From IMG/VR virus record IMGVR_UViG_2556921669_000003, positions 1-64,000 of that record: 64,000 nt of DNA; one strand, 5' to 3'. The DNA is from a virus. Its lineage: Duplodnaviria; Heunggongvirae; Uroviricota; Caudoviricetes. Position numbers and translations under genes: made by a program. Position 1 is the stretch's first letter; every line of letters starts with the position of its first letter. Below, piece by piece: positions 4,353 to 48,873 of this stretch. A model generated the notes under the pieces. The model was given only the letters and a program-made list of their open reading frames with translations, did not search any database and was not told the DNA's origin.

Positions 4353-4380
4353 TGACAAAGAATTTGTGAATCGGTAGGGT
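4353..4380 (+). promoter_or_regulatory. variant operator-promoter (TTGACAAAGAATTTGTGAATCGG TAGGGT)
   Basis: TTGACA -35 plus a degenerate copy of the ACAAATTTGT palindrome; faces into the ORF-poor region. Confidence 0.3.
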
Positions 4381-4830
4381 TCAGTCACAAGAAACGAGGA
4401 CCTAGCATCGAGACGGTGGAACAAACGCCAGATCAATGCGGGACACAAGAAGACCGGAATAGCAGCAAGACGTGAAATGCGAAAGGAGCGCGGCCATCCG
4501 GCCGTAGCAAAAAGCCCACTAGAGGCAACTGCCCACCAAGAGGCAAAGAAGGAGACGGCAACATGCGGCAAACCTCCCAGGACGATCGCAGAAGAAGACT
4601 GACGGAAAAGCGAGGAGGCAGAAGAAGATACGTAGGGCGGGCGAGGGGCCCGCCGTAAGGGCCGCCATGATGACGGCCCATTTCCTGAGCGCCCTTTGGG
4701 GAGTTGAGGAAATGTGAGACGGGCGTAGTGCCCGCAACCCCGACCGACCGCTGTGGCTGCAACTTGGCGGTCGGTCGGGGGAGGAGGATGGGCCGTCCGG
4801 GCAACGCCGGGCGGCTTTGCTATTTATAGG
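4381..4830 (+). ncRNA. candidate non-coding RNA (purine-rich, T-poor transcript) in the immunity region
   Basis: About 260 nt with roughly 8% T on the plus strand; no credible ORF; ends at the perfect 14-bp inverted repeat CCCCGACCGACCGC..GCGGTCGGTCGGGG (4738..4780) followed by a T-rich tract. Confidence 0.25.
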
Positions 4831-5212
4831 AGCCGCGACCATGGCCCTATCACCACGGAAGAGGAGAGGTCATGGGTATTCAGCAAAGACAGATGGCTTA
4901 TCTTCAAACAAAGAAGATTACGGTCGAGGCGCTGTTCGCGATGCGGGCAGTGTCTACGGCCGGTTTTCGTTTTTCCAGCGGCCACCAACCGCGCAAGGCT
5001 GCGGCCACCACCTAGCTCGAAAGAGAGACGCAGCCGGCCTGGCTGACCGCCAGGCGAAATTCAACCCCCTTCAAAAGTTGACCCTAAGGCCGGCACCACC
5101 CGCTTAGCAACCAGTGAAGGGGTCCCTACTAGGACGAGGAGGAGGCGTGATGAGCGCCAGAACTCAGTCCGTTCGATACCGCCACCACAGCGGCAAGGAG
5201 TTGTTACTATAA

Positions 5213-5229
5213 CGGTACAAATTTGTCAA
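5213..5229 (-). promoter_or_regulatory. operator-promoter copy on the minus strand (TTGACAAATTTGTACCG)
   Basis: 14/17 identity to the PR operator; lies immediately 3' of the repressor-2 stop and points leftward into the ORF-poor region. Confidence 0.35.
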
Positions 5230-5247
5230 GCGTCACGCTACGGCAGC

Positions 5248-5874
5248 CTATGTGGCCACAGCGGTGAGTCGCTCCGCAAGGACGATGACGTGGATCGCCT
5301 CGATCGGCACGTCGAACTCGACAGCCCGTCCGTATTGCGCCAGCCGCGCCTTGTCGCCGTCGATGGAGACGAGGCGGCCAATCCACGCCACGCCCTTGCC
5401 GCTATGCACGAAGACCTCGTTTCCGGGCTTGGGGAAGGGGCGGCTGTCCACCCAGACCCTACAGCCGTAGAGGAGGGCGGGCTCCATGACGTTCGTGTCG
5501 ACGCGGACCACGTAGCGCCCATACGGCACGTAATTCGGACCGTAGCCCGACATGGCCGGTTCGAACTTGAACTTGCCTTCCTTGCGGTCAGCGATCTTTC
5601 CCTTCTCCTGCACCGTATCAAGCGTCGACATGTCGAGGGCGGTTCCGGCGCGAGCTTTCGCTTCCTCAGCCAGGCCATCCACTTCGGCACGCGGCACGCC
5701 CAGAAAGTCAGCCAGCCCATCTCGAACATCGTCGCGTGGTATCGTCCCGCGCTTCCAGCTATTGTAGGTCTGCTGCATCCATCCGTACTTCTCGCCGACG
5801 GCTCTATCCGTGAGCTTCAGCGCCTTCTGTCGGTCGGAAAGCATGAGGGCGAGGCGTGTTTTCTTCTTCACCAT
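5248..5874 (-). CDS. second CI-like repressor: XRE HTH plus S24-like domain lacking the nucleophile Ser (NVMEP in place of xSMxP)
   Basis: HTH MLSDRQKALKLTDRAVGEKYGWMQQTYNSWKRG; C-terminal LexA-fold alignment places Val at the catalytic Ser position. Start taken at MVKKK; the annotated TTG start lies inside the operator. Confidence 0.75.
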   Translation of the reverse strand: MVKKKTRLALMLSDRQKALKLTDRAVGEKYGWMQQTYNSWKRGTIPRDDVRDGLADFLGVPRAEVDGLAEEAKARAGTALDMSTLDTVQEKGKIADRKEGKFKFEPAMSGYGPNYVPYGRYVVRVDTNVMEPALLYGCRVWVDSRPFPKPGNEVFVHSGKGVAWIGRLVSIDGDKARLAQYGRAVEFDVPIEAIHVIVLAERLTAVAT

Positions 5875-5894
5875 GGAGGACTCGCAGAAAAAGC

Positions 5895-5923
5895 TTGACA
5901 AATTTGTAAAATGGTACTATAAA
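5895..5923 (+). promoter_or_regulatory. PR-like early promoter with operator: TTGACAAATTTGTAAAA, -10 TATAAA
   Basis: Consensus -35, 17-nt spacer and -10; the perfect palindrome ACAAATTTGT overlaps the -35; divergent from the repressor gene. Confidence 0.5.
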
Positions 5924-5992
5924 ATTCGACTGTCGGCAAGTCCACCAGACTCCGACCTGCGCGCAAGCGCACCACCACGCAGAGGAGAAACG

Positions 5993-6280
5993 ATGACGAT
6001 CATCACCAGCGATACGCTGGCGGATATGCGTGCTTGCCTGAATCGAGGCGAGACCATCGCAACCATCGCCAGACGATACGGCCTGAAAGACATGGCTGTC
6101 TACCAGCGTTTGCGCCGCGATCTCGGTGGGCCGCCCATTCCCGGCCCCGCAAACGACAACAACCCAGGCCGCGTGACCCGGATGACGCCGCACAACGGCG
6201 GCTGCTCGACGACGAGCGGCAAGATGCCCGTGACCCTGGTTCGCGTCCCGTCGGTTGATGGGGTGGCGGTGGCGGCATGA
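5993..6280 (+). CDS. small HTH DNA-binding protein (Cro-like early regulator), contains PANDN, ends ...VAVAA
   Basis: First gene after PR; GAGGAGAAACG SD; RGETIATIARRYGLKDMAVYQRLRR resembles an HTH. Confidence 0.55.
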   Translation: MTIITSDTLADMRACLNRGETIATIARRYGLKDMAVYQRLRRDLGGPPIPGPANDNNPGRVTRMTPHNGGCSTTSGKMPVTLVRVPSVDGVAVAA

Positions 6281-6579
6281 GCGACACCAGCAACACGACG
6301 CAGTGCGACTGCGACTACTTCGAGTTCGGCGACTGGGTTCGCTCTCGCCAAAATCCCAATCTCACCGGGCAGGTGATCGGCGAGCGAGGCTGGGGTGAGG
6401 AGTACGAAGTGCGCCTCGCCGACGGCCTCACCAAGACCTGGTGGAAAACCATTGAAATCGAGCACGACCCGGACGGCTCTCCGCCGGCCATGGAAGATGA
6501 CGACACGAACGTCGTCCGTGTGGATTTCACCAAACGGCGCGAACTGCGCGAGGATACGACAACGGGAGGGGCTGCGTGA
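6277..6579 (+). CDS. hypothetical protein (100 aa)
   Basis: ATGA overlap with the previous stop; acidic non-repetitive sequence. Confidence 0.5.
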   Translation: MSDTSNTTQCDCDYFEFGDWVRSRQNPNLTGQVIGERGWGEEYEVRLADGLTKTWWKTIEIEHDPDGSPPAMEDDDTNVVRVDFTKRRELREDTTTGGAA

Positions 6580-15516: not shown

Positions 15517-16020
15517 ATGAACAAAACCAAGACAACTACCACTGCTACAGCCCGCCCCGCCGACTTCGATGCTCGCGTCATGACGTACATGCCCGGCCTT
15601 CGACGCTTGGCCGCGAAGCACGTCCCGCGTCCGTATCGTGAAGACCTCGTGAATGACACCGTCATGTACGCGCTGGAGAACTGGCGGAACTATCGCGAAA
15701 CCGGCGCCATGTGGTCGTGGCTGGAGTGGACGATGCGCGGCATCGTCACCAACGCCGCAAAGAAGGCAGCCACGCGCGACAAGCACGTCCGTTTCGTGCC
15801 GCTCACCCATCAGGATTCTGCTGTAGCGCCCGCACAGGAAGGCTATGTCCGGCTTTCCGAGACCCTGCGCGGCTTGGCGGCCCACCGCCACGGGACTGTG
15901 CTTATGCGGCGCGCTATGGGCGACACGCTGAGAGAAATAGCGGCCGACCGCGGCGCGACCAAGGAGTGGGTGCGCCAGATGGAAGTGGCCGCCCGCCGCG
16001 AACTGAGGGCAGCAGCATGA
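15517..16020 (+). CDS. ECF-type sigma-70 family sigma factor
   Basis: Region 2-like DLVNDTVMYALENWRNY and region 4 HTH LREIAADRGATKEWVRQMEVAARRELR; ends ...LRAAA. Confidence 0.6.
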   Translation: MNKTKTTTTATARPADFDARVMTYMPGLRRLAAKHVPRPYREDLVNDTVMYALENWRNYRETGAMWSWLEWTMRGIVTNAAKKAATRDKHVRFVPLTHQDSAVAPAQEGYVRLSETLRGLAAHRHGTVLMRRAMGDTLREIAADRGATKEWVRQMEVAARRELRAAA

Positions 16021-18727: not shown

Positions 18728-18729
18728 TC

Positions 18730-18758
18730 TTGACAAATTTGTAAAACAGTACTAAGTT
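18730..18758 (+). promoter_or_regulatory. operator-promoter copy TTGACAAATTTGTAAAA
   Basis: Exact 17-mer copy 3 nt after the helicase stop, followed by the CACCACATAGAGGAGAGA module of the next gene. Confidence 0.45.
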
Positions 18759-18806: not shown

Positions 18807-19244
18807 ATGATGAATCGTGAGAGAAGATGCCGGCTTGAACAATCAGGCGCACGCATTGAAAGCCTGATCTGGATTCCCGGCGCGACGGCAAGCGACGTGT
18901 TGCCGGGCGGCCTTAAAGATGCGATTTCCGAGGACCTCTACGAGAACAATGAGCAGGTCCTCTCAAAGGTGCCCGGCCTCGCTCACATTCTGACGAGCAA
19001 TGAGAGTCCGGATTTCGAGGAAGTTGCGGAAATCCTGTGCGATGTCGATGGCTTTCTGGCGCAGATCGCAGCGCCAATCCCAACGAAATTCTACGAAGGC
19101 GGCGGGTTCTCGTATAGCTGGGGCTACTACCAGACCAAGTGGGTTCACGCCGACAACCTTGATGAGTTGACCGCCTTGGCTGAAGAGTTCGGTAAGGATG
19201 TGGTCGAGCGAGCCCGCGCGAATGAACTGGCGGATGCAGCATGA
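18807..19244 (+). CDS. hypothetical protein (145 aa) under operator-promoter control
   Basis: Acidic protein; ends ...ELADAA. Confidence 0.5.
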   Translation: MMNRERRCRLEQSGARIESLIWIPGATASDVLPGGLKDAISEDLYENNEQVLSKVPGLAHILTSNESPDFEEVAEILCDVDGFLAQIAAPIPTKFYEGGGFSYSWGYYQTKWVHADNLDELTALAEEFGKDVVERARANELADAA

Positions 19245-28461: not shown

Positions 28462-28486
28462 CAAATTTGTAAAAACGATCTATATA
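28458..28486 (+). promoter_or_regulatory. operator-promoter copy TTGACAAATTTGTAAAA, -10 TATATA
   Basis: Exact 17-mer overlapping the upstream stop codon. Confidence 0.45.
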
Positions 28487-28529: not shown

Positions 28530-29150
28530 TTGATGACGAGACGGGATTTGTATTTCGCCGTTGAGGGCGGCAGGACGCTGGAAATTGCCAGGAAGCATGT
28601 GGCGGAGCGTGCTGCGGTGGAGGAAGTCAATCGCGCGCTGGCCAAAGAGCTCGGGGCCGAGCGGTACGCGGTCGATTTCTTAACGGGCGTACTGTGCGGC
28701 GTCATTTTCCCCGGCAAGCCGCACGCCGATTTCAAGAAGCCAAACAAGAATGGAGTTTCCAGTCCTCGCGCGAGAACCGCGTGGGATGCGCGTCTCGCCT
28801 CGATGAAGGGATATGACAGGCGCGGCTTTTCGCTTGCAAAGGCCCTAGGCGTGCCGACGGACATCTCATACCGCAAGGGTGACGCAGTGCGCGGCGGCTC
28901 GGCCATTGCTGGCGGCTTCTCGTCCGGTGTTGGCTTCCTCTACCTCTCCGAAGACGGCCCGTTTGCACTCTACGTCCCGGATGTAGCGTATGTTGTCGCT
29001 GACTATGAGGATCGGGGCTACACCGTCTGCGACGAGTGCAAGAACTTCAAGCCTGAGTTCGACGGTGCGCGCCCAATCCTGAAGGAAGAGTGGGAGTTGG
29101 TCGTCGCTCGTCACAAGTTGGCTGAGGCTGAGAAGAAGGTGGCGGCATAA
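28530..29150 (+). CDS. hypothetical protein (206 aa), ends ...EKKVAA
   Basis: CACCACGATAGAGGAGAGA initiation module. Confidence 0.5.
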   Translation: MMTRRDLYFAVEGGRTLEIARKHVAERAAVEEVNRALAKELGAERYAVDFLTGVLCGVIFPGKPHADFKKPNKNGVSSPRARTAWDARLASMKGYDRRGFSLAKALGVPTDISYRKGDAVRGGSAIAGGFSSGVGFLYLSEDGPFALYVPDVAYVVADYEDRGYTVCDECKNFKPEFDGARPILKEEWELVVARHKLAEAEKKVAA

Positions 29151-30775: not shown

Positions 30776-30851
30776 TGCGGGCTAGAGAAACGGTATCTCG
30801 TCGGGCTCATATCCCGAAGACACCCGGTTCGACTCCGGGGCTCCGCAACCA
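30776..30851 (+). tRNA. tRNA-like element, anticodon CAU (Met; initiator-like GGG/CCC anticodon stem), acceptor stem with one bulged U, encoded CCA
   Basis: Hand-folded. D arm GAGA-aacggta-TCTC, anticodon arm TCGGG-ctCATat-CCCGA, variable loop 5 nt, T arm CCCGG-TTCGACT-CCGGG, acceptor UGCGGGC/GC(U)CCGCA, then A-CCA. Coordinates ±1. Confidence 0.4.
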
Positions 30852-37896: not shown

Positions 37897-38295
37897 ATGA
37901 CTATGCTCAATATCTTCAAGGATGACGCGTTCAGCCTCACTTCGCTGACCGACTCCATCAACGAGATCGAGTACCGCTCGAGCCGAATTCAGGAGTTGGG
38001 CCTTTTCGAGGAAAAGGCAGTTGCCACGACCACGATTGCGATCGAGCGCATCGGCGACAAGATCCAGCTCGTTCCCCCGGCACCTCGTGGCGGTAAGGGT
38101 GACGTGAAGGAAAAGCAGAAGGCAACTGCCAAGCCCTTCGCGATTCCCCACTTTCCTCGCGAATGGTCCGTGTTGGCCGATGAAGTTCAGAACGTCCGCG
38201 CATTCGGCTCCGAGTCTGAAGTCGAAACGGTCATGTCCGTTGTCCTTGACAAGATCATGGACAACATGGCCGACATCGATGTGACGCATGAGTAT
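37897..38295 (+). pseudogene. major capsid protein (lambda gpE family), 5' portion (aa 1-133), interrupted by the insertion
   Basis: N-terminal similarity to lambda E stops at ...DIDVTHEY; the ORF then reads through AT-rich foreign sequence (..SGVSLKYRKKPRIYNN..). Confidence 0.75.
38284..38295. repeat. attL core: ACGCATGAGTAT (direct repeat, in frame T-H-E-Y)
   Basis: Identical 12-mer at 51772..51783, each at the break point of the capsid reading frame. Confidence 0.6.
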
Positions 38296-38465
38296 TCTGG
38301 GGTTAGCCTCAAATATAGAAAAAAACCACGAATATACAACAACTTAGCTCGGCGCAAGTCGGGCTATTTTGTTGCCCGACGGGCAACAACCTCCCCGAAC
38401 AAAAACAATGACTTACGGAAAGTCCGGGCAAACCCGCGCGACTTTCTTGCGACAAGGATTGCAGC

Positions 38466-38666
38466 ATGAGCACCAACGAAAAGGCTGACCTCCTTTATGG
38501 GGTGGCCAGCATCGCCAAGCACTTGGGCATTACCGAACGTCGAGCGCTCTACCTGAAGGAAAAGGGAAGCATTCCCACCTTCCAGATCGATCGTACCGTC
38601 TGTGCCCGAAAGACCAGCCTCAACGCTTGGCTTGCCGAGCAGGAAGCGAAGGGGAGGGGCGAATGA
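38466..38666 (+). CDS. xis: AlpA-family excisionase / DNA-binding regulator
   Basis: 66 aa; LLYGVASIAKHLGITERRALYLKEKGSIPTF is a typical AlpA/Xis winged HTH; sits about 170 nt inside the left junction after arm-like repeats (TTGTTGCCCG-A-CGGGCAACAA). Confidence 0.7.
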   Translation: MSTNEKADLLYGVASIAKHLGITERRALYLKEKGSIPTFQIDRTVCARKTSLNAWLAEQEAKGRGE

Positions 38667-38950
38667 CGAGGGGCCGCACCAAGGAAGCGCAGGACGCCTT
38701 CATTCAGAAGTTGCTTCACCCCGAAGCCGCCCCGGTGGAAGCCGACATTCCGCAACCGGATCCCGCGCCGCAAGAGGACGAGGAAGGCACGGATTATGAC
38801 CTGACCTTTGAGCAGATGAGCGTTGACCAGCTAAACGCGGTCCTCGCATGGAACGAAGGTGACGCCCAGATGACCTTGGACTTCCTTGCTGAGTTTCGCC
38901 CGTATGTGGAGGCCCGTCGCCGCGGCGAGCCCGTGAGGTGGCAGGAATGA
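38663..38950 (+). CDS. hypothetical protein (95 aa)
   Basis: ATGA overlap with the xis stop; acidic. Confidence 0.4.
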   Translation: MTRGRTKEAQDAFIQKLLHPEAAPVEADIPQPDPAPQEDEEGTDYDLTFEQMSVDQLNAVLAWNEGDAQMTLDFLAEFRPYVEARRRGEPVRWQE

Positions 38951-39153
38951 ATGCCATGGAGCGCATCTTGGCCGCCATGGCGGAAGGCCGGAGGAACGAC
39001 CCACCACATGAAGAGCTAAGTCTGCTGGACGCGCTTCGCTGCATGCTCCCGGCGGCGGAAGCGGATGCGGCGGAATCGCAAGGCCAACTTGATTTCTTGC
39101 GCGCGGAAATCGCCAAACTTGAGGCGGCGAAAGAGGAATCGGAGATGACGTGA
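38947..39153 (+). CDS. hypothetical protein (68 aa)
   Basis: ATGA overlap. Confidence 0.4.
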   Translation: MNAMERILAAMAEGRRNDPPHEELSLLDALRCMLPAAEADAAESQGQLDFLRAEIAKLEAAKEESEMT

Positions 39154-40394
39154 CATACCAAGAAGGTTCACGGGAGGAGTATGAGGCACACCTCGCTTCA
39201 ATTAGCGATGCGGAATGGAAGCGCCGCACTCAGGACGCCGTATGGTTTTCCAAAGACCCGCCCCGCCTTGGACCGGACCCGCCGCTGACCTTCCACAAGA
39301 ACTTCACGGCAATCCAGCCCAAACGGTATGTGGTGGGCGACTTCCTCGCGGAAGGCGAGGTGTCATGTTTCTTCGGTGAGCCCGGCGCGACTAAGGGCAC
39401 CATTGCGGTGGACATTGCCTGCCACGTCGCGGCCGGTCTGCCTTGGATGGGCCGCACGGCAGGGGGGCACCTTGACCCTTGGGAGAGGAAGGCGCTGGGC
39501 AAGGAGAGTATGCCGGCGGGCGTGCTCTATATCGCGCTCGAGCGCTCTACCCAGGTACAGCGCCGCGTTGAAGCGTTCACGGATGAGCACGGAATTCAGG
39601 AACCACTTGACCTTGCTATATGGTCCGGTCCGCTCGATCTAGTTGGTAGCGAAAGAGACGACATCCTCTCCGCCGTCTACGCGCATGAGCGAGCGCAGGA
39701 GGAGGACGAGGAAGGCGAGGGTAGCTACCGCGAAGTGCGACTCGTGGTGATTGACACCCTTGCCCGCGCCTTCGGCTCCGGTTCGGATAGCGGCGGCGAA
39801 GAGACGGCGGCGGTGGCGAGAAAGTTTGAGCGCGTTCTCCGGTTCCGTCCTGACCTGCATATCTTGGTGGTGCACCATACCCCGATAGGTGATGACTCCC
39901 GCCTTCGCGGCCACGGCAACCTGCTTGCCGCCTTTGACCAGACGGTGCGGGTACGCAAGCACAAGGTAGGTTCCACCGCCACGGTGATGAAGGACAACGA
40001 CACGGCGGAAGAGGGCAAAGCCCGGTTCGCCTATGCGCTCAAGAGTCGCGTCATCCACGTTGCCAAGGACGGCAAGGAAACCACCGCGCCTGTTGTGGTG
40101 CCGCTCCCGGCCGAGGCCGTCAAGCACGCCATGCCGAAGGTCAGCGTGAAGGCGGCGGGACCGAAGGCCAGCAAGAGCGAGCAACCGCTCCTAGATGCTC
40201 TTGAGGGGTTGGGTGGCTCTGCCACCGAAGCGGACTGGCGAGTGGCGTTTGATGCCGCAAGGCAGGATGGCCTATCACCAAGCGCTCACCGAAAGCGCTG
40301 GTCCGTCGGCCGGCCCGCCCTAGAGGCGAAGGGGCTGGTCCAAAAGGATTCCGAAGGGCGTTACCGCGTTACCGTTACCAACGTTACGGAATAA
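39150..40394 (+). CDS. RepA-like / AAA_25 replication initiator-helicase loader of the inserted element
   Basis: GEVSCFFGEPGATKGTIAVDIACHVAAGLPWMG parallels the helper PrimPol C-domain GEFTTISGLPGTGKSVVTTDLACHIAAGMDWHG; C-terminal wHTH-like region; GTGA overlap. Confidence 0.7.
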   Translation: MTYQEGSREEYEAHLASISDAEWKRRTQDAVWFSKDPPRLGPDPPLTFHKNFTAIQPKRYVVGDFLAEGEVSCFFGEPGATKGTIAVDIACHVAAGLPWMGRTAGGHLDPWERKALGKESMPAGVLYIALERSTQVQRRVEAFTDEHGIQEPLDLAIWSGPLDLVGSERDDILSAVYAHERAQEEDEEGEGSYREVRLVVIDTLARAFGSGSDSGGEETAAVARKFERVLRFRPDLHILVVHHTPIGDDSRLRGHGNLLAAFDQTVRVRKHKVGSTATVMKDNDTAEEGKARFAYALKSRVIHVAKDGKETTAPVVVPLPAEAVKHAMPKVSVKAAGPKASKSEQPLLDALEGLGGSATEADWRVAFDAARQDGLSPSAHRKRWSVGRPALEAKGLVQKDSEGRYRVTVTNVTE

Positions 40395-40510
40395 GAATGG
40401 TAACGCTTTTGGTAACGTAACGTTTTCAGACGGGGTTAGGGCGCACAGCGTTACCAACGTTACCGTTACTACCCCCCTCTTTAGAGGGGGAGTAAGTAAC
40501 GTAACGCTTG
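40360..40510. repeat. satellite origin: about 10 GGTAACG/CGTTACC iterons plus the palindrome CCCCCCTCTTTAGAGGGGG
   Basis: Iterons begin within the last codons of repA (..RVTVTNVTE) and continue for about 120 nt with no ORF. Confidence 0.5.
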
Positions 40511-40550
40511 GTGCGCTTCGCCCCGTGAAAAATCCGTAAGGGTGAAGATC

Positions 40551-40862
40551 ATGGAAATTGATGATGTAGAGCTCGCTGTCTCTCGGGCTTTGCGGGATGG
40601 CGCAGGAAACAAACCCGCGCAAGAATTCGGATTTGCTATCCAGCCCTTCCGGGGCACGCGCCTATGTGGCGGCGAGTTTGAGGACGCCGTGGCCGTTGTC
40701 GGCGTGCACTTCAACGGCAAGGGTGACTACAGCTTCATTTGTGTCGCGTCGGACGGCGTGGGCGAGACCTACGTCACTCAGGAGGAGAACCTTCTGGGCG
40801 TGGATCTTCCTTACGGCTTTCCACCGGCTCCGGCGCAGGACGCCAACCCGTCTGATCCATAG
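40551..40862 (+). CDS. hypothetical protein (103 aa)
   Basis: Follows the ori; AGGGTG SD. Confidence 0.4.
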   Translation: MEIDDVELAVSRALRDGAGNKPAQEFGFAIQPFRGTRLCGGEFEDAVAVVGVHFNGKGDYSFICVASDGVGETYVTQEENLLGVDLPYGFPPAPAQDANPSDP

Positions 40863-41016
40863 CCGCCATGAGCAAGGCGAGGAGGCGAGGAACGTCTCGC
40901 GTCCCGCTCTCAAACTCCGAAATGCGGACCTTGCTTCCGTACCCCAGAAGCGCCGCAAGCGCCTCCTGCTTATAGCCGAGGCGCTTGCGGATTGCTTTGA
41001 ACTCTTCGCTGGTCAT
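40774..41016 (-). CDS. XRE-family HTH transcriptional regulator
   Basis: LGYKQEALAALLGYGSKVRISEFESGTRDVP helix-turn-helix. Confidence 0.6.
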   Translation of the reverse strand: MTSEEFKAIRKRLGYKQEALAALLGYGSKVRISEFESGTRDVPRLLALLMAAMDQTGWRPAPEPVESRKEDPRPEGSPPE

Positions 41017-41231
41017 CGTGCGGCCCGCAGGTAATCCATGCCATAAACGTCAATGGTCCAATCGCCGTCTTCGGCGACTTCCATGGCCTGCATTACCAGC
41101 TTCCAAGCCTTTTCGCGAGAGACTTCGCGGTACACGTCACCGTCGACCTTCACGTCAAATGCATAGACCTTGCACTGGCCGTCGAAGCGGCGGGTGATGT
41201 TGACCTTGATGTCTGCGGTGCCGGTGTTCAT
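41013..41231 (-). CDS. small hypothetical protein (72 aa) co-transcribed with the XRE regulator
   Basis: GGGAGAG SD; ATGA overlap with the XRE gene; its promoter carries the GTAACGCATTTGCGTAAC palindrome. Confidence 0.45.
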   Translation of the reverse strand: MNTGTADIKVNITRRFDGQCKVYAFDVKVDGDVYREVSREKAWKLVMQAMEVAEDGDWTIDVYGMDYLRAAR

Positions 41232-41259
41232 TTCGCTCTCCCTTGCCGTTGGATTATTA

Positions 41260-41277
41260 GTAACGCATTTGCGTAAC
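41260..41277. promoter_or_regulatory. 18-bp palindromic operator GTAACGCATTTGCGTAAC in the spacer of the regulator-operon promoter (-35 TTGCTA)
   Basis: Reverse-complement copy (20/21 identity) of the site in the integrase promoter at 50358..50375. Confidence 0.45.
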
Positions 41278-41395
41278 TTTAGCAAGGGCGAATTTCAAGA
41301 ATTCGGTGCCGCATTCGTCTCCTGCGGACGGTGCCGGGCCGGGGAGTCGCGTCTCCTCTTTCTCCTCGGCCACCCCTTCAACAATAGGAAATCAC

Positions 41396-42337
41396 ATGAA
41401 CCACGTTGACCAAGAAAGGCTTGAGGCGCACGCCAAGGGCCTCCCTCTCCAAACCCGGCGCAAGCTGCCCGCGCTCATTGACGCCTCCGTTGACGCCATG
41501 ACGGCGTTCGGGGGTGCCAATGACACTGCCCGCGAAGCTCATACGGCTTACATTGATTCGCGGCTCCGCTTTATCAACCGCTGGAACGTCGAAGAGGCAC
41601 AAGCTCCTACCGGCGAACCAATCTTCACCTACGTGCCTGCCCGAAGGAACGAAGTGCCTGAGTTTCGCTTTGAAAGCGAACGTGAAGGCGTCATCGAGAA
41701 ATGGCAGGTCTGGCAGCGCCGAAAGCGTGCGCGGGACAAGGCAGACGTTGTTCGCGCGGGCAACGAATATCTTCAGGATATCCTGGGCTGGCTCCGCGAC
41801 AATCCCGGCCCCTTCAAGTCGGCCGCCATGCCGCCGGCGAAACTCGGTAAAGGCCAGACGCACCACCAGGCAGTGGAAGATATCCGCGAACGTCTGATCC
41901 GCATTGACGAGAAAGTCGCGGCCACAGAGTACGCTCCGACGCCGGCCGAAGACCTGATAGCCCGCGCCCATGCTGCCGTTGATGACTTAGCCCACCGGGG
42001 CAAGGTCCATATCTATACCAACAACCGGGACGGCTCGCCGGTGAACCTTTCGGGGAGCGGCAGGCTGACAGGCGTGACGGGCATTCTGCCAGAAACTCTG
42101 GTCTGGCTCCTGGCCGATGAAATCAAGGCCAGCGTTTCCGCCAAGATCCGCGAAGTCGCGTCCAAGGACGCAATCAGCGACTTTGACCGCGCTGCCGAAC
42201 TGTCCGCCCTAGCCGCTGACAAGCTTGCTTTGGAGCGGCTGGAAGAAGCCCACATTCTCGCGGCCGCCGAAATCGGCCAAATCATCCACCGACGCCGTGA
42301 AGCCAATCCGCGCGCAATTCTGGAACTTGAAGCATGA
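41396..42337 (+). CDS. hypothetical protein (313 aa) upstream of the satellite protease
   Basis: Start ATG after AGGAAATCAC; ATGA overlap with the downstream protease gene. Confidence 0.45.
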   Translation: MNHVDQERLEAHAKGLPLQTRRKLPALIDASVDAMTAFGGANDTAREAHTAYIDSRLRFINRWNVEEAQAPTGEPIFTYVPARRNEVPEFRFESEREGVIEKWQVWQRRKRARDKADVVRAGNEYLQDILGWLRDNPGPFKSAAMPPAKLGKGQTHHQAVEDIRERLIRIDEKVAATEYAPTPAEDLIARAHAAVDDLAHRGKVHIYTNNRDGSPVNLSGSGRLTGVTGILPETLVWLLADEIKASVSAKIREVASKDAISDFDRAAELSALAADKLALERLEEAHILAAAEIGQIIHRRREANPRAILELEA

Positions 42338-42957
42338 TCCAACTCGACATGATGGGCACGGTGGGCGAAGATTTCGACGCTGCAACCGTCAAGTTTGCCC
42401 TTGCGCAAGGTGGTGACGTGCATGTCACCCTCAATAGCGGGGGCGGGTTCGCGGCAGAGGGCGCCGCTATCTATGCCTTGTTGGACGCGCACCCCGGCCG
42501 GGTTCGCGTGGATATTGTTGGCATTGCGGCCAGTGCTGCAAGTCTCATTGCCATGGCGGGCGACAGCATCGTCATGTTTGATGGCGCGGTCATGATGATT
42601 CATGATCCGCTCAATATCACCATTGGCAACTCGGCGGCCCACGCCAAGACCATCGAGGAACTGGAAAGCTATGCGAAGGCATATGCGGCGATCTATGCCA
42701 AGAGAGCGAAGATCAGTCCTGCTGCGGCGCGAGCAATCATGCAGGCAGAAACTTGGTATGACGGCGAAGCCGCCGTGAAAGCCGGGTTCGCAACTGCCAA
42801 GTCTTCGAACGCTTCTGCCGCTTGGGCGAAGTTTGACTATGACAAATACCAAAAGGGTGCGGCGGCTGTAGCCGGTGCGAGCAGCACGCGTGCATCATGG
42901 AAACAGACAATCATGCGCCGCAAGGCATATGAAGACGCATTCGTAATCAGGGGATAA
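42334..42957 (+). CDS. S49/ClpP-like prohead-protease paralog (no scaffold domain)
   Basis: LNSGGGFAAEGAAIYALLDAHPGRVRVDIVGIAASAASLIAMAGDSIVMFDGAVMMIHDPLNITIGNSAAHAKTIEELESYAKAYAAIYAKRA is about 60% identical to helper protease 36085 residues 40-150. Confidence 0.7.
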   Translation: MIQLDMMGTVGEDFDAATVKFALAQGGDVHVTLNSGGGFAAEGAAIYALLDAHPGRVRVDIVGIAASAASLIAMAGDSIVMFDGAVMMIHDPLNITIGNSAAHAKTIEELESYAKAYAAIYAKRAKISPAAARAIMQAETWYDGEAAVKAGFATAKSSNASAAWAKFDYDKYQKGAAAVAGASSTRASWKQTIMRRKAYEDAFVIRG

Positions 42958-42962
42958 ATCAC

Positions 42963-43250
42963 ATGGCTACCACTCGACTATTCAATCTGCCCGCTGATGC
43001 ATGGACGCTTGTTGCGTCCGGTGCGGCCAGCATAACCATCAAGCCTATCACCAACGTGGCTATCCGTGCCTATGTCGGTCGTACCCTGCTGGAGGATACC
43101 AATGAGGCGCTTACCCTTGGCGGCCTGGGGGCTGTGCTAACGCTGGATAACCCGTCCGACGCTGACCATGTGTACCTCAAGCCAGCAGAGCGCACAGAGG
43201 TAGAGGTAGGCGTGGGCATGGCTTATCGCGCCTTGCTGCCGGGGGCCTGA
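42963..43250 (+). CDS. hypothetical protein (95 aa), possibly capsid-associated
   Basis: Directly after the protease paralog. Confidence 0.4.
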   Translation: MATTRLFNLPADAWTLVASGAASITIKPITNVAIRAYVGRTLLEDTNEALTLGGLGAVLTLDNPSDADHVYLKPAERTEVEVGVGMAYRALLPGA

Positions 43251-43383
43251 CCCGCCCCTGGCATAGGGACCGTTTGGCCTGTCCAAACCGATAGCGGGCG
43301 CGACACCCTCGCCGGTCGGACTTTATCTAGTTCAAAAACAGGGTAACAGAATGCGGACACCCCCGAAAATGGAGGCGAAACCC

Positions 43384-43578
43384 ATGGTTGCATACTTCGT
43401 CAACCAAGCGGCCTACGCCGAACACCAGAAGGTTTCAAGAAAGACTGTAACCATCTGGAAACAAAAGGGATACCTTGTTTTGAATTCGGCAGGACGAGTC
43501 AATGTCGCCGCATCAGATAAGCGTCTTTTGGACGCCTTCGGCGAACGTCGCCGCGTGTTACCCCCTGTCCGCAGGTAA
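43384..43578 (+). CDS. TerS N-terminal (HTH DNA-binding) domain paralog, stand-alone 64 aa
   Basis: VNQAAYAEHQKVSRKTVTIWKQKGYLVLNSAGRVNVAASDKRL vs helper TerS MNQAGFAAHRRVSRKTVTGWKQRGLLVLLPDGQVDVAASDRAL; GGAGG SD. Confidence 0.5.
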   Translation: MVAYFVNQAAYAEHQKVSRKTVTIWKQKGYLVLNSAGRVNVAASDKRLLDAFGERRRVLPPVRR

Positions 43579-43618
43579 CACCAACTGCGGACACCCCCAT
43601 CACCTTCACCATCCACGA

Positions 43619-43640
43619 CCCGCCGAAGCGCGGGTTTTTT
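43619..43640 (+). terminator. rho-independent terminator CCCGC-cgaagc-GCGGG plus TTTTTTGTTG
   Basis: GC stem followed by a T6 run, after the TerS-domain paralog. Confidence 0.5.
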
Positions 43641-43661
43641 GTTGTCCAGAAAGGACCACCC

Positions 43662-43928
43662 ATGACCGTAACCTACACCCTCCGCACTCCCGTTGAACAT
43701 GCTGGCACGACCTACCAGGAACTGACATTCCGCGAGGCCACGACGGGCGACATGATTGTTGCTGACAAGTTCGACGGCCCGAACGGCAAGCTCATCGCCA
43801 CCTTCGCCGCCATGTCTGACGTGCCGCTGCCCGCCTTCAAGAAGGTGAGCATGCGCGACTTCAACAAGATCGTCCTGGCGGTGGCTGACCTCATGGGGGA
43901 GGACGAAGCGGCGGATGGCGCGGCCTAG
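43662..43928 (+). CDS. tail assembly chaperone (lambda gpG-like)
   Basis: 88-aa acidic protein immediately upstream of the tape measure gene. Confidence 0.55.
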   Translation: MTVTYTLRTPVEHAGTTYQELTFREATTGDMIVADKFDGPNGKLIATFAAMSDVPLPAFKKVSMRDFNKIVLAVADLMGEDEAADGAA

Positions 43929-44121
43929 TCGCGGTCATCGCCTCAGAGCTCAATACCCCGATTCACGTCATTGAGCAGTGGCCGCCTGACAAGACCCTCG
44001 ACTGGTATCAGGCGGCCATTGAACTCATTGCGCTGAAGAACGGGCAGCATCCCCCCGAGCCATCTGAGGCTCACACGGCCATGAGCGCCACCATAAAAGC
44101 GAAAAAGGAAGCGCGGCATGA
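43928..44121 (+). CDS. gpT-like extension, probably expressed as a G-T fusion by -1 frameshift
   Basis: The -1 frame after the G stop is open and encodes ...VIEQWPPDKTLDWYQAAIELIALKNGQ..., typical of tail assembly protein T; slippery site not confidently identified. Confidence 0.35.
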
Positions 44122-46559
44122 GTAAAAGGTCCGCAGAACTCGTCCTGTCTCTCACCGATAAGGTGAGCGGCAGGGCGAAAGGCGTCCATGCCGCCCTTGC
44201 CAAACTCCAGATGATGGCGGCCCGTAATGCAGCCGCCATGGACGCCATGCAGAGCCGCATGGTGACTGCTGTCGCTATGGGCTACACCCTGGCCCAGAGC
44301 CTGAGCGCGCCTATCAAGTCGGCCGTGGCGTTCGAATCAAAGCTGGAGGATATCGGCCAGAAGGCGGACATTCCCCAGAAGCGCCTTGCGGAATTGGGGA
44401 AGCAGCTTCGGATTGTCGGGCGGGAGACGAACCAGGCCGGATCCGAAATGGCGAAAGGGATGGATACCCTTCTCGGTCTTGGTGCCTCTGAGGGTGACGC
44501 GCTGAAGCTCTTGCCCAATATCGGCAAGGCGGCTTTTGCCTACAAGGCCAGCATTGAGGACCTGAGCGCCGCCGGCTATTCCACCCTGAGCAATCTGAAG
44601 GTTCCGGCAGATCAATTCGGCAAGTCCCTAGACGCCATGGCTACGGCCGGAAAAATGGGCGCCTTCGAACTCAAGGACATGGCCCAGTATTTTCCTGCCC
44701 TTGGCGCGGGATATCAAGCACTTGGTCAGACCGGCGTGCCGGCCGTTGCCGACCTTTCGGCAGCCCTGCAGGTGGTTCGCGGGGCGACAGGTGATTCCGC
44801 CTCGGCCGCGACAAACCTCGGCAACGTCCTGCAGAAGATCAACTCGCCCCAGACAGTCAAAGCCTTCAAGAAACTGGGCGTGAACCTCGAGCGCGAGCTG
44901 AAGAAGCGTGCCGAAGCTGGCATGAGTCCAATCGAGGCCATCGCGGACATCACCAACAAGACCCTGAAGGGTGACCTCAGCAAGCTTGGCAATCTTTTCG
45001 AGGATTCACAGGTCCAGCAGGGCCTTCGTCCGCTCATCCAGAACATGGAGGAATACCGTCGTATCCGGGCGGCGGCCATGGCAGCGTCTGGCACGGTTGA
45101 GTCCGACTTCCAGCGCCGTATGAAGACATCGGAAGGAGCGCTTCTGCGGATGCAGGCCGCCCTGGAGAACGTATCTGCCTCCATCGGTGCAGCCCTGTTG
45201 CCCGCCCTCAATCAGGTGATCGACAAGGTTGCGCCCGTTGTCACCGGGATTGCTGACCTTGCGGAACGGTATCCCGAAGCCACCTCCGCAATCGTCGCCG
45301 CAACGGCTGCTGTGGTGGGCTTCAACGTTGCAATGACGGCCACCCGGTTCGCCTTCCTGTGGACGAAGGGCGGTATCCTGTCCATGGTGATTCCGGTGGC
45401 GCGGTTGGCCACCCACTTCGGCACGGCGGCGACGGAAGCCGTTGCGCTTCAGCGGTCCCTCAAGGCGCTCTCCACGTCGAAAAACGCCGGCATGGCCGCC
45501 ATGCTTGACGGGGGTCTCAACGGCGCGGGCCTAACCAAGCTTGAAACGGTTCGTACCGCTCTTGGTGGCATGGCCGCCGCCGTGCCGGGCGTTACCGCAA
45601 TCGGCGGGGCTCTCAGTACCGTTGGTGCTGCACTGGCCACCATCTCCGCGCCGGCATGGTTCGCCATTGGCGCGGGTGTTGCTCTTGTTGCCGGTGCTGG
45701 CCTTGCGCTCTGGCAAAACTGGGATCGTATCAGCAGCATAGTGACAGGCGTTGCTCGCGCGATCGGCGAGGAACTTCAGCCTGCCATCGACTTTCTATGG
45801 CCGGTGCTCGATCCCTTCGCGCAGTCGTTCTCCGCATTGGGGGATGCTGCAAAATGGGCGTGGGAGCAGTTCAAAGAGGCGGCTAGCTGGCTCGGCTCGT
45901 TGTTCCAGTCGAATGACCTGACGCGCCAGCACCAAATGGTCATCGAGGACAACGCCTATGCCGTAACCCGCAAGCTTATCGACGGCTTTAAAGCGCTGAA
46001 TTCTGCGATGTTCCAGGCCGGCGTGGACATGATTCAGGGCATCATTGATGGCGTCGTGGCCAAGGCGGGCGAACTTCTGGCTTGGTTTACCTCCCTGCCG
46101 GACAAAATCAGGGCGGCGATCGGCAGGATCGATCTCAGTAACATCATCTCGTGGCCAAAAATGCCGACATGGCTTGGAGGCGGCGAAGAAGCTCCTGCAC
46201 AAAAGCCAGCCGTCGACGGAGCTCGCGCCAAGGGCGGCCCAGTCCGGAGCGGTGGGCTCTATGTCGTTGGCGAGCGCGGGCCGGAGTTGTTCAGTCCCGG
46301 CAGCGGCGGGATGATCAGCCCGAACGACGCCTACCGGGCAGCAGCAGCCGGTGCGTCCAGTGGTGGCGGTTCCCGTTCTGGCGGCGGCGGAAACACTTTC
46401 AACATCCAGCCAGTAATTCACATCCCCGTAAATGCACCAGTTGGCGGCGATCCCGACGCATTCGCGCGAAACGTTTCCGACAAGGTGGGCGACTACGTCA
46501 TACGGCAGCTTGAGGGCTCCTTTGGATTTGAGCTGGCAGACAACATGACCTACAGGTGA
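44118..46559 (+). CDS. tail tape measure protein (813 aa)
   Basis: Long Ala/Gly/Leu-rich alpha-helical protein with TMP core motifs, after the G/GT chaperones. Confidence 0.85.
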   Translation: MSKRSAELVLSLTDKVSGRAKGVHAALAKLQMMAARNAAAMDAMQSRMVTAVAMGYTLAQSLSAPIKSAVAFESKLEDIGQKADIPQKRLAELGKQLRIVGRETNQAGSEMAKGMDTLLGLGASEGDALKLLPNIGKAAFAYKASIEDLSAAGYSTLSNLKVPADQFGKSLDAMATAGKMGAFELKDMAQYFPALGAGYQALGQTGVPAVADLSAALQVVRGATGDSASAATNLGNVLQKINSPQTVKAFKKLGVNLERELKKRAEAGMSPIEAIADITNKTLKGDLSKLGNLFEDSQVQQGLRPLIQNMEEYRRIRAAAMAASGTVESDFQRRMKTSEGALLRMQAALENVSASIGAALLPALNQVIDKVAPVVTGIADLAERYPEATSAIVAATAAVVGFNVAMTATRFAFLWTKGGILSMVIPVARLATHFGTAATEAVALQRSLKALSTSKNAGMAAMLDGGLNGAGLTKLETVRTALGGMAAAVPGVTAIGGALSTVGAALATISAPAWFAIGAGVALVAGAGLALWQNWDRISSIVTGVARAIGEELQPAIDFLWPVLDPFAQSFSALGDAAKWAWEQFKEAASWLGSLFQSNDLTRQHQMVIEDNAYAVTRKLIDGFKALNSAMFQAGVDMIQGIIDGVVAKAGELLAWFTSLPDKIRAAIGRIDLSNIISWPKMPTWLGGGEEAPAQKPAVDGARAKGGPVRSGGLYVVGERGPELFSPGSGGMISPNDAYRAAAAGASSGGGSRSGGGGNTFNIQPVIHIPVNAPVGGDPDAFARNVSDKVGDYVIRQLEGSFGFELADNMTYR

Positions 46560-47104
46560 GGATCAACATGGCAGGAACACTAGATGGGCTTCTCCGAAGC
46601 ATGGGGGAACGCATTCAGGATCTGGAGCGGCGGAACAATAATCGCCGCCGCACCGGCACCATTGCGGAAGGCCCTGATGAAAAGGGCCGGTATCGCGTCA
46701 ACATCTCAAAACAGGCCAGGGCGGATCAGCCGTATCTGACGCCATGGATACGCCCTAAGACCGTCGGGGCCGGCGCGGTCAAGATGGACGTGGTTTACGC
46801 CATTGGAGAGCAGGTCGATATTGTCTCAGAGAACGGGGATCTTACAGATGCCCGTATCGATTTCGGGATGTATTCCGACGACAACCCGCGCGAGAATGGC
46901 GAGAACGTGCCGCTCCGGCTGAAGGTAGGCGACTCCATCATCGAGGTGAGCGGGGGGGGCATCACCCTGAAGGCCACCAAGATCGTCCTAGACGGCACCG
47001 TGCACCTTGGAGGCGAAGGTGGGCAACTCCTCCACCGTAAGGGGGACGCAGATAGCGACGGCGATACGGCAGTCGGTTCGGCCAGCCGAGTCTACGCGGT
47101 GTAA
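46556..47104 (+). CDS. gpV-like baseplate spike/hub protein paralog
   Basis: N-terminal OB-fold region similar to helper gpV (53889); C-terminal 35 aa [41 protein letters not shown] is nearly identical to the helper copy. Confidence 0.65.
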   Translation: MRINMAGTLDGLLRSMGERIQDLERRNNNRRRTGTIAEGPDEKGRYRVNISKQARADQPYLTPWIRPKTVGAGAVKMDVVYAIGEQVDIVSENGDLTDARIDFGMYSDDNPRENGENVPLRLKVGDSIIEVSGGGITLKATKIVLDGTVHLGGEGGQLLHRKGDADSDGDTAVGSASRVYAV

Positions 47105-47106
47105 TC

Positions 47107-47754
47107 ATGCTCAAAATCGACATCAAGGGCGACGGTCTCGCCCTCTTCACCAAGGCGACGGCGGCCCTCAAGTCGCCCCGCAAGGCCGGCCAAGTCTTCA
47201 GCCGCGCCATCAATGAAACCGGACGGGTTGGGGGCACGGCTGCCGCCCGCGCTCTTGCCGTACAAACCGGACTGCCCCGCAAGACCACACTGAAGGCCGT
47301 GCGCCGCAACGTGTCGAAGTCGACTCCCGCCACCCTCTCCTATGTGATCCACGGACAGGGTGGCGACGTGAGCCTGAAATACTTCAAGCCGCGCGAAACC
47401 AGGGCCGGTGTAAGCGCCGCCCCGCGCGGCGTGCGGCAGGTATTTCCCGGTTTGTTTCAGAGGGCTGGCTGGTGGCCGAAACGTGTCGACAAGCCTGCCT
47501 GGAACAGGCAGATCTTCGTCCGCATTGGCGATGGCCACAGTTACAATCTCGCCAAGTCAAACCCGTTTGTGAAGTCCGGTCAGCAGAAGCGTGAGCGCGT
47601 CGGCACCAAGTTCGCCAAGCAAAAATCAGGCGTATTTATCCCAGTCGAGATGCTTCGCGGGGAGACGGCCAAGGTTTGGGATCAGACGTCCGCGCGCCTC
47701 GAGCCTCGGGTGATCCACCATATCAACCGGATGACGGGCGGGTTGTTCACATGA
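47107..47754 (+). CDS. gpZ-like tail completion protein paralog
   Basis: Collinear weak similarity to helper 30869 and lambda Z. Confidence 0.45.
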   Translation: MLKIDIKGDGLALFTKATAALKSPRKAGQVFSRAINETGRVGGTAAARALAVQTGLPRKTTLKAVRRNVSKSTPATLSYVIHGQGGDVSLKYFKPRETRAGVSAAPRGVRQVFPGLFQRAGWWPKRVDKPAWNRQIFVRIGDGHSYNLAKSNPFVKSGQQKRERVGTKFAKQKSGVFIPVEMLRGETAKVWDQTSARLEPRVIHHINRMTGGLFT

Positions 47755-47886
47755 TCACGGCAACCTCGGCAACACGGGCAACGGCGTTGCCGAGGTTGCC
47801 GGGCCTGTGCCTAGACCGACGCCGGGGCGTCCGACCCGCATTGGCCCCGTTGGGGCTGGAACAGTCTCTAACCCACCGGGGGTCTC

Positions 47887-48123
47887 ATGATCCGCATAAG
47901 CCACATGAACCCGGCGCGCGGCAGGATCGCCGCAACATTCACGGCAACGGTTGGGGAGCTAGTGCTCCCCGGCTGCGCCTTGATCAGGCGGGACGGCGGC
48001 TTCGGCTTGTCGGTGCCGCGCCTGACTGGCGAAGGCGGGACGCGGCGAGCCCCGCTATCCGATGCAATGGAAGCAGAACTTCTCAGGGTGGCAATAGCCA
48101 CGCACACAACCTCGGAGCAATGA
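47887..48123 (+). CDS. hypothetical protein (78 aa)
   Basis: Follows a perfect 16-bp inverted repeat (about 47757..47800). Confidence 0.35.
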   Translation: MIRISHMNPARGRIAATFTATVGELVLPGCALIRRDGGFGLSVPRLTGEGGTRRAPLSDAMEAELLRVAIATHTTSEQ

Positions 48124-48503
48124 TGACCAAATTCACCATTTCTAATATGAAGCCCTCACATCATGCCGGCAGCACGCTTGCCACCTTTAATGTGCACCTG
48201 CGCGAATTAGGGATTAGCCTGCGCGGGATCACCCTGTCCCGTCCTTCGCACGTCCCCGTGCCTGAGACGCGGCTATACTTCCCTGACCAAAGGAAGGTAA
48301 GCGACACCGCATACTACATCGGTCCCTGTGAACTTCGAACCAGGATCGGCGCCGCTGCTTGTGCCGCTTACACGGCAATGACGGGGGAGCCCGCATCATT
48401 CATTCCGAAAGAGGCAATCGACGACAGCACCGAAGATGAGGCTGCCGGCATGATGCGCTTCATTGGCGCGGAAAACGAAACGCTGCGCAAGGCGGGGATC
48501 TAG
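48120..48503 (+). CDS. hypothetical protein (128 aa)
   Basis: ATGATG start overlapping the upstream stop. Confidence 0.4.
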   Translation: MMTKFTISNMKPSHHAGSTLATFNVHLRELGISLRGITLSRPSHVPVPETRLYFPDQRKVSDTAYYIGPCELRTRIGAAACAAYTAMTGEPASFIPKEAIDDSTEDEAAGMMRFIGAENETLRKAGI

Positions 48504-48512
48504 GAGAACACC

Positions 48513-48848
48513 ATGAACGCAATCGAACGTTGGTCAGCTATCATGGCGCTGCCCGAATACAACGAACAGCTTCATGCTATGGCTGCGCTGCTCTTCAAGG
48601 ATGAGCAGTTGTCGGTAGAGCAGGTGCAAGCAACGCTTGCTGTGGCGAAGCGAAGCGCGCCGGCTGCCAGCAAGGTGGAGACGCCTGAGAGCTATGACGC
48701 CTATAGGGCACGGATGGCGCAGGCCGCTGGCGACGAGCTAGAAATTGCGGGCGCACGACTTAGTGACGGTCGCTCAGCCAAGGACATCTCCACGAAGGCA
48801 CTCTGGGCCAAGGCCATTGCCGAGGTCAATGCGCGCCGCCAACCTTGA
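48513..48848 (+). CDS. hypothetical protein (111 aa)
   Basis: Non-repetitive; its stop lies inside the next operator-promoter copy. Confidence 0.45.
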   Translation: MNAIERWSAIMALPEYNEQLHAMAALLFKDEQLSVEQVQATLAVAKRSAPAASKVETPESYDAYRARMAQAAGDELEIAGARLSDGRSAKDISTKALWAKAIAEVNARRQP

Positions 48849-48873
48849 CAAATTTGTAAAAGGATACTATGCC
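48845..48873 (+). promoter_or_regulatory. operator-promoter copy TTGACAAATTTGTAAAA inside the satellite
   Basis: Exact 17-mer identical to the helper PR operator; followed by the CACCACAAGAGGAGACT module. Confidence 0.45.

Follow-up and report, generated by a model that had tools for sequence, protein, structure and literature searches.

A conserved palindromic promoter motif in a Shinella prophage and other 16-3-type phages is a candidate operator of a second CI-like protein

Rhizobium phage 16-3 is a classical temperate phage of rhizobia in which immC, immX and avirT are known to exert control. The regulators of other temperate phages provide several points of comparison. The 434 repressor contacts its ACAA half-site through Q28 and Q29, and in both lambda and 434 CI and Cro classically share operators. 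One repressor acts at many dispersed sites in P1 (C1) and mycobacteriophage L5 (the gp71 'stoperators'), and an SOS-sensitive part is combined with a non-cleavable repressor in P22 (immC/immI), coliphage 186 (CI/Tum) and Gifsy phages with LexA-controlled antirepressors. Among dependent elements, P4 promoters answer P2 Ogr/Cox, and Stl of the Staphylococcus aureus pathogenicity islands (SaPIs) is derepressed by helper proteins. In 16-3 itself (record NC_011103), the operators of the C repressor are annotated as ACAA-N4-TTGT (OL1 and OL2) and ACAA-N6-TTGT (OR1 and OR2), flanking the c gene. Here we analyse a 64,000-nucleotide (nt) stretch of viral DNA, hereafter the window (positions 1 to 64,000 of IMG/VR record IMGVR_UViG_2556921669_000003), in which a 17-nt motif built on a palindrome recurs at predicted promoters. 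Judged by its genes, the window is a prophage distantly related to 16-3. Proteins identical to its own are held by Shinella sp. strain DD12 (assembly GCA_000496935.2), its genes from c to VRR-NUC (a nuclease gene; 3.6–28.5 kb) stand in the order known from 16-3, with a syntenic early region, and the proteins of the relatives 16-3, NV1.1.1, RHph_X2_25 and RHph_TM3_3_14B are just 40–70% identical to those of the window.

The 17-mer TTGACAAATTTGTAAAA occurs exactly on the + strand at 5895–5911, 18730–18746, 28458–28474 and 48845–48861, all four being found where the original prediction had placed them. The genes that it had put behind these copies (the early operon, 18807, 28530 and 48920) agree with the starts seen here: 5993, 18807 (or 18810), 28530 (or 28533) and 48920 (or 48923). 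Two variants had also been listed. One, on the minus strand at 5213–5229 (TTGACAAATTTGTACCG), is a true copy with three mismatches, all within its last four bases, whereas the other, at 4353–4374, was not recovered within three mismatches and is an ACAA-N5-TTGT site. Save for this one misassigned variant, the earlier observation is real. At up to three mismatches the window yields nine matches (the four exact sites score on the opposite strand too) against 0.08 expected from dinucleotide shuffles, and 0 of 100 shuffles attained nine. The core of the motif, ACAAATTTGT, is a perfect and invariant 10-bp palindrome with five exact copies in the window; ACAA-N2-TTGT likewise occurs five times, against about 0.22 expected, and its centre is AT in all five. 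Symmetry extends to 16 bp as a near-palindrome, TTGACAAA joined to TTTGTaAA, in which seven of eight pairs are symmetric. The G+C content of the window is 61%, so that the copies stand out as sharp AT-rich islands.

The consensus for sigma-70 promoters in Sinorhizobium meliloti is CTTGAC-N17-CTATAT (PMC2873474), and each copy fits a predicted host sigma-70 promoter of this rhizobial type. When the C preceding the 17-mer is included, CTTGAC matches at six of six positions in each exact copy and also in the one on the minus strand. A 17-nt spacer then leads to CTATAA, CTAAGT, CTATAT and CTATGC in copies 1–4 and to GTAACA in copy 5, with TA at positions 2–3 in all. The claim that a consensus −35 lies within a palindrome overlapping promoters is thus borne out by the CTTGAC hexamer, the 10-bp dyad and the overlap with the promoter. 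By contrast, the TACTAT-type −10 elements proposed 3–4 nt after each copy would leave a spacer of 14 nt, and the register common to the four copies is CTTGAC-N17-CTAnnn. In the window the dyad spans the −35 and the first half of the spacer. This spacer (AAATTTGTAAAA; AAATTTGT) is invariant in the window and its relatives whereas the −10 varies, which is the opposite of the pattern of a plain promoter.

Copy 1 (5894–5922, + strand; −35 CTTGAC at 5894–5899, palindrome at 5898–5907, −10 CTATAA at 5917–5922) is the putative promoter of the early operon, and 21 bp separate it from the start codon of a divergent CI-like gene related to p070 of 16-3. The first gene of this operon (5993–6280, +) encodes a small protein 45% identical to 16-3 p072, whose counterpart in TM3_3_14B is annotated 'cro-like'. 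Copy 2 (18729–18757, +; −10 CTAAGT) lies right after the helicase stop codon and would drive 18810–19244, and copy 3 (28457–28485, +), with the perfect consensus −10 CTATAT, overlaps the stop codon of the VRR-NUC gene and would drive 28533–29150. Copy 4 (48844–48872, +; −10 CTATGC), which lies inside an inserted element, overlaps the stop codon of 48513–48848. Copies 2–4 each begin at or in the stop codon with which the gene before them ends and would therefore act inside a long rightward array of genes, as internal promoters. Copy 5 (5202–5230, − strand; −10 GTAACA), the variant TTGACAAATTTGTACCG, forms a putative leftward promoter just 3′ of the p070-type gene. The leader 3′ of each copy is 40–65 nt long and runs from a small hairpin with an ACCA-rich loop through CACCAC and AGAGGAGA to the start codon; these hairpins are not exceptionally stable (z −1.2 to +0.3), and no structured leader is claimed.

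The search of related phages that the original prediction had proposed found the motif at syntenic positions throughout the 16-3 family, so that it is not peculiar to this prophage. Among the genomes examined that have a p070 homologue, exact copies of ACAAATTTGT number five in the window, seven in 16-3, and five each in X2_25, TM3_3_14B and NV1.1.1. RHph_Y25, RHph_I3_18 and Rivra, which infect related hosts (Rhizobium or Agrobacterium) and have a C-type repressor and no p070 homologue, contain none. The places common to 16-3, NV1.1.1, X2_25 and TM3_3_14B are both flanks of p070, the 3′ side of the helicase gene and the 3′ side of VRR-NUC. We further collected 29 IMG/VR loci chosen by p070 homology alone (29–60% identity). 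A palindrome stands immediately upstream of the p070-type gene in 29 of 29 (26 exact, 3 with one central base changed), and in most of them, as in 16-3, X2_25 and TM3_3_14B, a further copy lies just beyond the 3′ end of the gene; several carry tandem palindromes 37–48 bp apart beside p070. In a second sample, selected by the 17-mer, 23 IMG/VR loci are arranged like the window, with the p070 gene, the motif and the cro-like gene. The fully symmetric TTGACAAATTTGTCAA is present in relatives. In 16-3, X2_25, TM3_3_14B and many metagenomic relatives, the copy in the p070–p072 spacer is flipped (ATTACAAATTTGTCAA) and overlaps the −10 of a TTTACA-N16-TACAAA promoter, which indicates that the dyad is kept independently of a role in the −35. 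A genome-collection scan for the 17-mer returned mostly chance matches in AT-rich genomes, with few relevant Rhizobiales contigs. In the part of the literature that was covered on 16-3 operators and promoters and on RHph phages, the palindrome is undescribed, and it is unannotated in the 16-3 GenBank record.

The proposed binder is the product of the p070-type gene itself (5248–5874, −), a CI-like protein with a helix-turn-helix (HTH) and an S24-like domain from which the catalytic Ser/Lys is missing; its identity to p070 of 16-3, a so far unstudied HTH protein, is 41%. Homology between the p070 and C families extends over their full length (hhalign probability 98%). The S24 catalytic DGESM of the C family (DGESMVPRY) aligns with TNVME in the p070 family (TNVMEPALL), so that Ser is replaced by Val, and the lysine is missing; Pfam S24 is detected in C only, not in the 5248–5874 protein. 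The 16-3 family therefore has, by prediction, one cleavable and one non-cleavable CI-like protein. The recognition helix of the p070 family, QQ[T/A][Y/F]xxW[K/L], is conserved down to about 30% overall identity, with single-residue exceptions in two loci (KQAF in L269, QQNV in L162). Its HTH aligns weakly with that of the 434 repressor (E = 0.27), QQ falling over Q28/Q29 of QQSIEQ, which we treat as a lead and not as a test. A chimeric repressor gene in two contigs (IMGVR_UViG_2844154294_000001 and 2597490149_000001; loci L127, L273 and L274) encodes an HTH nearly identical to that of 16-3 p070 followed by an unrelated, shorter C-terminal half, in a different early region, and it still adjoins TTGACAAATTTGTAAAA. 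What the comparison establishes is the sequence, the promoter geometry, the synteny, the gene co-occurrence and the domain swap.

The original prediction had named two CI-like proteins as binders, those of 3612–4289 (C) and 5248–5874. Comparative evidence favours the second and not the first, because of the co-occurrence with p070, the adjacency in 29 of 29 loci, the conserved helix and the swap of the HTH domain. From these we infer binding, repression and a role in lysogeny, and consider it reasonably likely that the palindrome is the operator of the p070-type protein, which would repress its promoters. A dimer of this HTH protein would bind the palindrome and cover the −35 region, shutting the promoter. 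It would thereby keep five transcription units in check: the early operon (5993), the two internal early or middle units at 18810 and 28533, the leftward structured RNA behind copy 5 (5213–5229) and its own divergent promoter, while the ACAA-N5-TTGT sites at 3566 and 4355 would give C (3612–4289) control of a separate promoter pair. In the inserted element, the short gene behind the 48845 copy would be silent while the second repressor of the helper is active and expressed on its relief.

The C repressor homologue (3612–4289, −) is 48% identical to 16-3 C, has an intact S24 'GESM' motif and is not the proposed binder. The window has one ACAA-N5-TTGT site on either side of its gene: one at 3566–3578, at the PL/OL position, and one at 4355–4367 (TGACAAAGAATTTGTGA), at the PR/OR position between c and the rightward genes, which is what had been taken for a variant of the 17-mer at 4353. 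Since they hold the OL and OR places of 16-3, the 4353 site is best read as a predicted C operator at PR, of a class distinct from the 17-mer; the two sites suggest a third spacing for a C-family repressor. The transcript from PR heads toward the 3′ end of the p070 gene, and the conserved leftward RNA runs opposite to it. The palindrome has the ACAA/TTGT half-sites of the 16-3 C operators, with a spacer of 2 bp in five of five copies and not of 4 or 6 bp, so that C and the p070-type proteins appear to share a half-site at different spacings (4–6 bp and 2 bp). Its five copies lie at 5.2, 5.9, 18.7, 28.5 and 48.8 kb, and only the 3566 and 4355 sites flank c.

Were C nevertheless to bind the palindrome, as a third operator geometry, it would control all copies including that of the element. 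The C operators of 16-3 do use the same half-sites at two spacings (N4 at OL, N6 at OR), which speaks for spacing tolerance, and the GESM motif, marking C as an SOS-cleavable repressor, would give a simple induction route. We consider this unlikely, however: the three phages with a C homologue and without p070 have zero palindromes, the palindromes flank p070 and not c, the chimera contigs pair the site with a p070-type HTH, and the c gene of the window has ACAA-N5-TTGT sites of its own at the OL and OR positions. Moreover, the recognition helix of C differs among phages with an invariant palindrome (DQQNINNF, SQQAINNL and SQPSISDL). It is about equally improbable that no dedicated factor is involved and that the 17-mer is a strong host sigma-70 promoter spread as a promoter–leader cassette, its palindrome a by-product of TTGACA and an AT-rich run. 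The match to CTTGAC-N17-CTATAT is perfect or near-perfect, and the stereotyped leader (CACCAC and AGAGGAGA) that accompanies each copy makes such spread plausible; yet it is the −10 that varies and the spacer that does not, the palindrome survives flipping and shifting and forms tandem pairs 37–48 bp apart beside p070, other rhizobiophages of related hosts lack it, and its symmetry covers 16 bp with seven of eight pairs.

Two early proteins other than the p070-type protein also have to be weighed. In the style of a CI/Cro switch, the cro-like protein (5993–6280) could bind the palindrome instead of the p070-type protein or in competition with it. Its gene is divergent across the palindrome in the window and in 22 IMG/VR loci, the TM3_3_14B counterpart bears the annotation cro-like, and the classical sharing of operators by CI and Cro counts in its favour. 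On the other side, the 5993–6280 protein gave no match to an HTH family, and no cro-like homologue could be detected in the chimera contigs, which nonetheless keep the site; we give this only a small chance, although it is compatible with an operator of the p070-type protein. Finally, the motif could be the promoter of a phage sigma factor (15517–16020), marking middle genes, given that the gene, of the sigma-70 family (regions 2 and 4), is conserved across these phages and lies upstream of copies 2–4. We regard this as very improbable: the hexamers belong to the host housekeeping sigma; copy 1 drives the operon that holds the sigma gene and so must fire first; a small sigma of the extracytoplasmic function (ECF) type would not read a dyad-symmetric spacer; and the site stands beside the HTH gene in contigs in which no sigma homologue was detected within 11 kb.

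Several points weigh against the p070-type protein as the palindrome's repressor. The complete genomes with p070 all share the cro-like gene, the sigma factor and other early genes as well, so that co-occurrence alone cannot separate the candidates; only the adjacency, the flanking copies and the chimera contigs do, and each of these contigs carries just one copy. A 2-bp gap between ACAA half-sites is unusually tight for a 434-like dimer, and the protein may read the outer TTGAC/GTCAA or bind in an unfamiliar geometry. To our knowledge, classical 16-3 genetics named immC, immX and avirT and no repressor at the position of p070. Thermosensitive c mutants (c-ts) of 16-3 induce by themselves, so that a second lysogeny repressor would need a relief mechanism; the p070-type protein could serve temporal control in lytic growth rather than lysogeny. 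The operator-promoter reading itself is well supported by comparative genomics, with binding and repression predicted.

Copy 4 and the gene that follows it do lie, as had been claimed, within an inserted element, a real integrase-bearing and repeat-bounded one. This integrative element of about 13.5 kb (38284–51783, +) occupies the major capsid gene of the prophage and is bounded by a 12-bp direct repeat, ACGCATGAGTAT, at 38284–38295 and 51772–51783; its tyrosine integrase gene (50408–51751) adjoins the right repeat. The capsid gene (phrog_29, Phage_cap_E) is split into an N part (37897–38469) and a C part (51811–52422), and joining the flanks restores its reading frame, ...DIDVTHEY running into HRLGAIQG.... 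As it stands, the prophage would make no intact capsid protein unless the element excises. Other genes of the element encode an AlpA-like HTH protein, an AAA_25/primase-like protein, a small XRE-type HTH protein, a ClpP-like protease, a tail chaperone and a tape-measure protein. No terminase, portal or capsid match was found among the element proteins scanned, several small open reading frames (ORFs) lying outside that scan. The element is without a p070 homologue; it brings an HTH gene and a palindrome of its own. This 18-bp palindrome, GTTACGCAAATGCGTAAC, occurs at 41260–41277 before a divergent operon and at 50358–50375 just 5′ of the integrase gene (about 0.01 expected by chance); the small XRE-type HTH gene (40774–41016, −) adjoins the 41260 palindrome. 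GTTACGCAAATGCGTAAC is probably the element's own operator.

Copy 4 is placed to drive only one gene, a 50-aa ORFan (48923–49075, +) with the helper-type CACCAC/AGAGGAGA start site, which is followed by a bidirectional intrinsic terminator (49083–49110). The 50-aa ORF has no homologue among 5.8 billion proteins. Converging on its terminator is a 101-aa protein gene (49104–49409, −) whose product has a signal-peptide-like N-terminus (MRIALPLAAALALAAPAHA…) and looks like a moron-type cargo gene. A protein-database search found related elements (L278–L281) with the same gene order, an integrase identity of 40–61% and no motif, and a viral-contig scan for the element integrase returned distant integrases only. 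The absence of the motif from these relatives points to recent acquisition of the copy-4 cassette from a 16-3-type phage. In L278, a Logan contig with a 61% identical integrase, the AlpA-like and AAA_25 genes come straight after the integrase gene. Relative to the element in the window this order is circularly permuted, as an excised circle or a tandem would be. The integrase of L280, another Logan contig, is 41% identical; its gene lies just 5′ of a Phage_capsid_4 gene, and about 9.5 kb upstream, where the locus ends, stands a second Phage_capsid_4 gene that is cut off. Relatives of the element may target capsid genes as well.

Signalling by the element's gene we infer more tentatively. In the scheme that we consider possible though doubtful, the element captured an operator-promoter of its helper and expresses the 50-aa ORFan only once the second repressor is relieved; the product would free the element's repressor, GTTACGCAAATGCGTAAC guarding the integrase gene and the main operon, and excision would restore the capsid gene upon helper induction. 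If so, the element keeps the capsid gene of its helper hostage while listening to the repressor of that helper. Against this, the cassette could be a passenger from recombination without a signalling role, its gene being an ORFan and the cassette missing from related elements.

The RNA that copy 5 would transcribe (5030–5196, −) is a conserved structured RNA in the 3′ region downstream of the p070-type gene, ending at a terminator (5045–5031). Thirteen diverse relatives preserve it, with compensatory changes, and its strand is fixed by three invariant G·U pairs. Its features are a 6-bp hairpin with an invariant GUGGU loop, GUCUCCUCC in single-stranded form, and a 3′ domain with many compensatory changes in its outer stem. 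Rfam, searched at the gathering threshold and at a permissive E-value, gave only one tRNA, so that this RNA is not in Rfam. Separately, CACCAC sits 0–6 nt 5′ of a strong Shine–Dalgarno sequence, (A)GAGGAGA, at about 13 intergenic starts in the early region and at the 50-aa ORF of the element (4851, 5970, 8597, 9832, 10653, 15496, 18789, 19743, 22680, 24425, 27933, 28511 and 48903). This signature is nearly missing from the structural-gene half; 16-3 and dozens of rhizobiophage contigs in IMG/VR have it too. A role in trans for the leftward RNA against translation initiation regions (anti-TIR) was considered and is speculation: crude duplex energies failed to tell CACCAC-type starts from others (−33.5 and −33.0 kcal/mol, p = 0.34).

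Other parts of the prophage were noted in passing. A tRNA-Met (CAT) gene lies at 30776–30851 between the early region and the terminase genes, and NV1.1.1 has a tRNA-Met at the equivalent place. On the 3′ side of the restored capsid gene, the prophage (52454–61500) carries P2-type baseplate genes (gpV, gpW, gpJ and gpI) and fibre-like genes. Neither a tail chaperone nor a tape-measure gene was seen in this interval; both are in the inserted element (43662–47754: Phage_TAC_7 and an 813-aa tape-measure protein).

If the palindrome is indeed the operator of the p070-type protein, the 16-3 picture would gain a whole regulon, in which a second CI-like protein acts at five to seven conserved operator-promoters, and with it a concrete candidate for holding off early and middle transcription. 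It would also offer a natural case of paralogous repressors that share the half-site ACAA and differ in spacing alone (2 bp as opposed to 4–6 bp). If the copy in the element is functional, a dependent element would be wired to its host phage through that phage's own operator. The 17-mer is, in addition, a handy marker for 16-3-like prophages in Rhizobiaceae genomes.

Compared with described systems, this one is of an ordinary kind, a repressor with dispersed operators on consensus promoters, which in the 16-3 family appears to be undescribed. With 16-3 immC it shares the phage family, the ACAA/TTGT half-sites, operators that overlap promoters and flank a repressor gene, and a homologous CI-like protein of HTH and S24 fold. 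It differs in its 2-bp spacer (4 or 6 bp in 16-3), in its five or more dispersed sites as opposed to two clusters, in that the sites flank the p070-type gene, and in a proposed binder without the residues for self-cleavage. The likeness to 434 repressor and Cro (ACAA-N6-TTGT) consists of the ACAA half-site and a recognition helix starting with QQ (weak, E = 0.27); the half-sites are 4 bp closer here, and the dimer geometry cannot be that of 434. A relation between the specificities of 16-3 C and 434 was reported by Dallmann et al. 1987, according to the passage of PMC10460002 that cites them.

Like P1 C1 and L5 gp71, the window has many identical sites scattered across tens of kilobases, of which several stand at internal early or middle promoters. 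The P1 and L5 sites are asymmetric, and those of L5 act largely in transcribed regions, whereas the sites here are dyad-symmetric and fused to a consensus −35. Two-tier immunity has its likeness in a C protein with GESM beside a p070-type protein without it, and its difference in that no antirepressor was identified in the 16-3-type phage. As in P4 and the SaPIs, a gene of a dependent element is tied, here by prediction, to a regulator made by the helper. The present element differs from both in that it carries, on a promoter, the putative repressor operator of its helper, rather than responding to a helper activator or antirepressor, and sits in the capsid gene of that helper.

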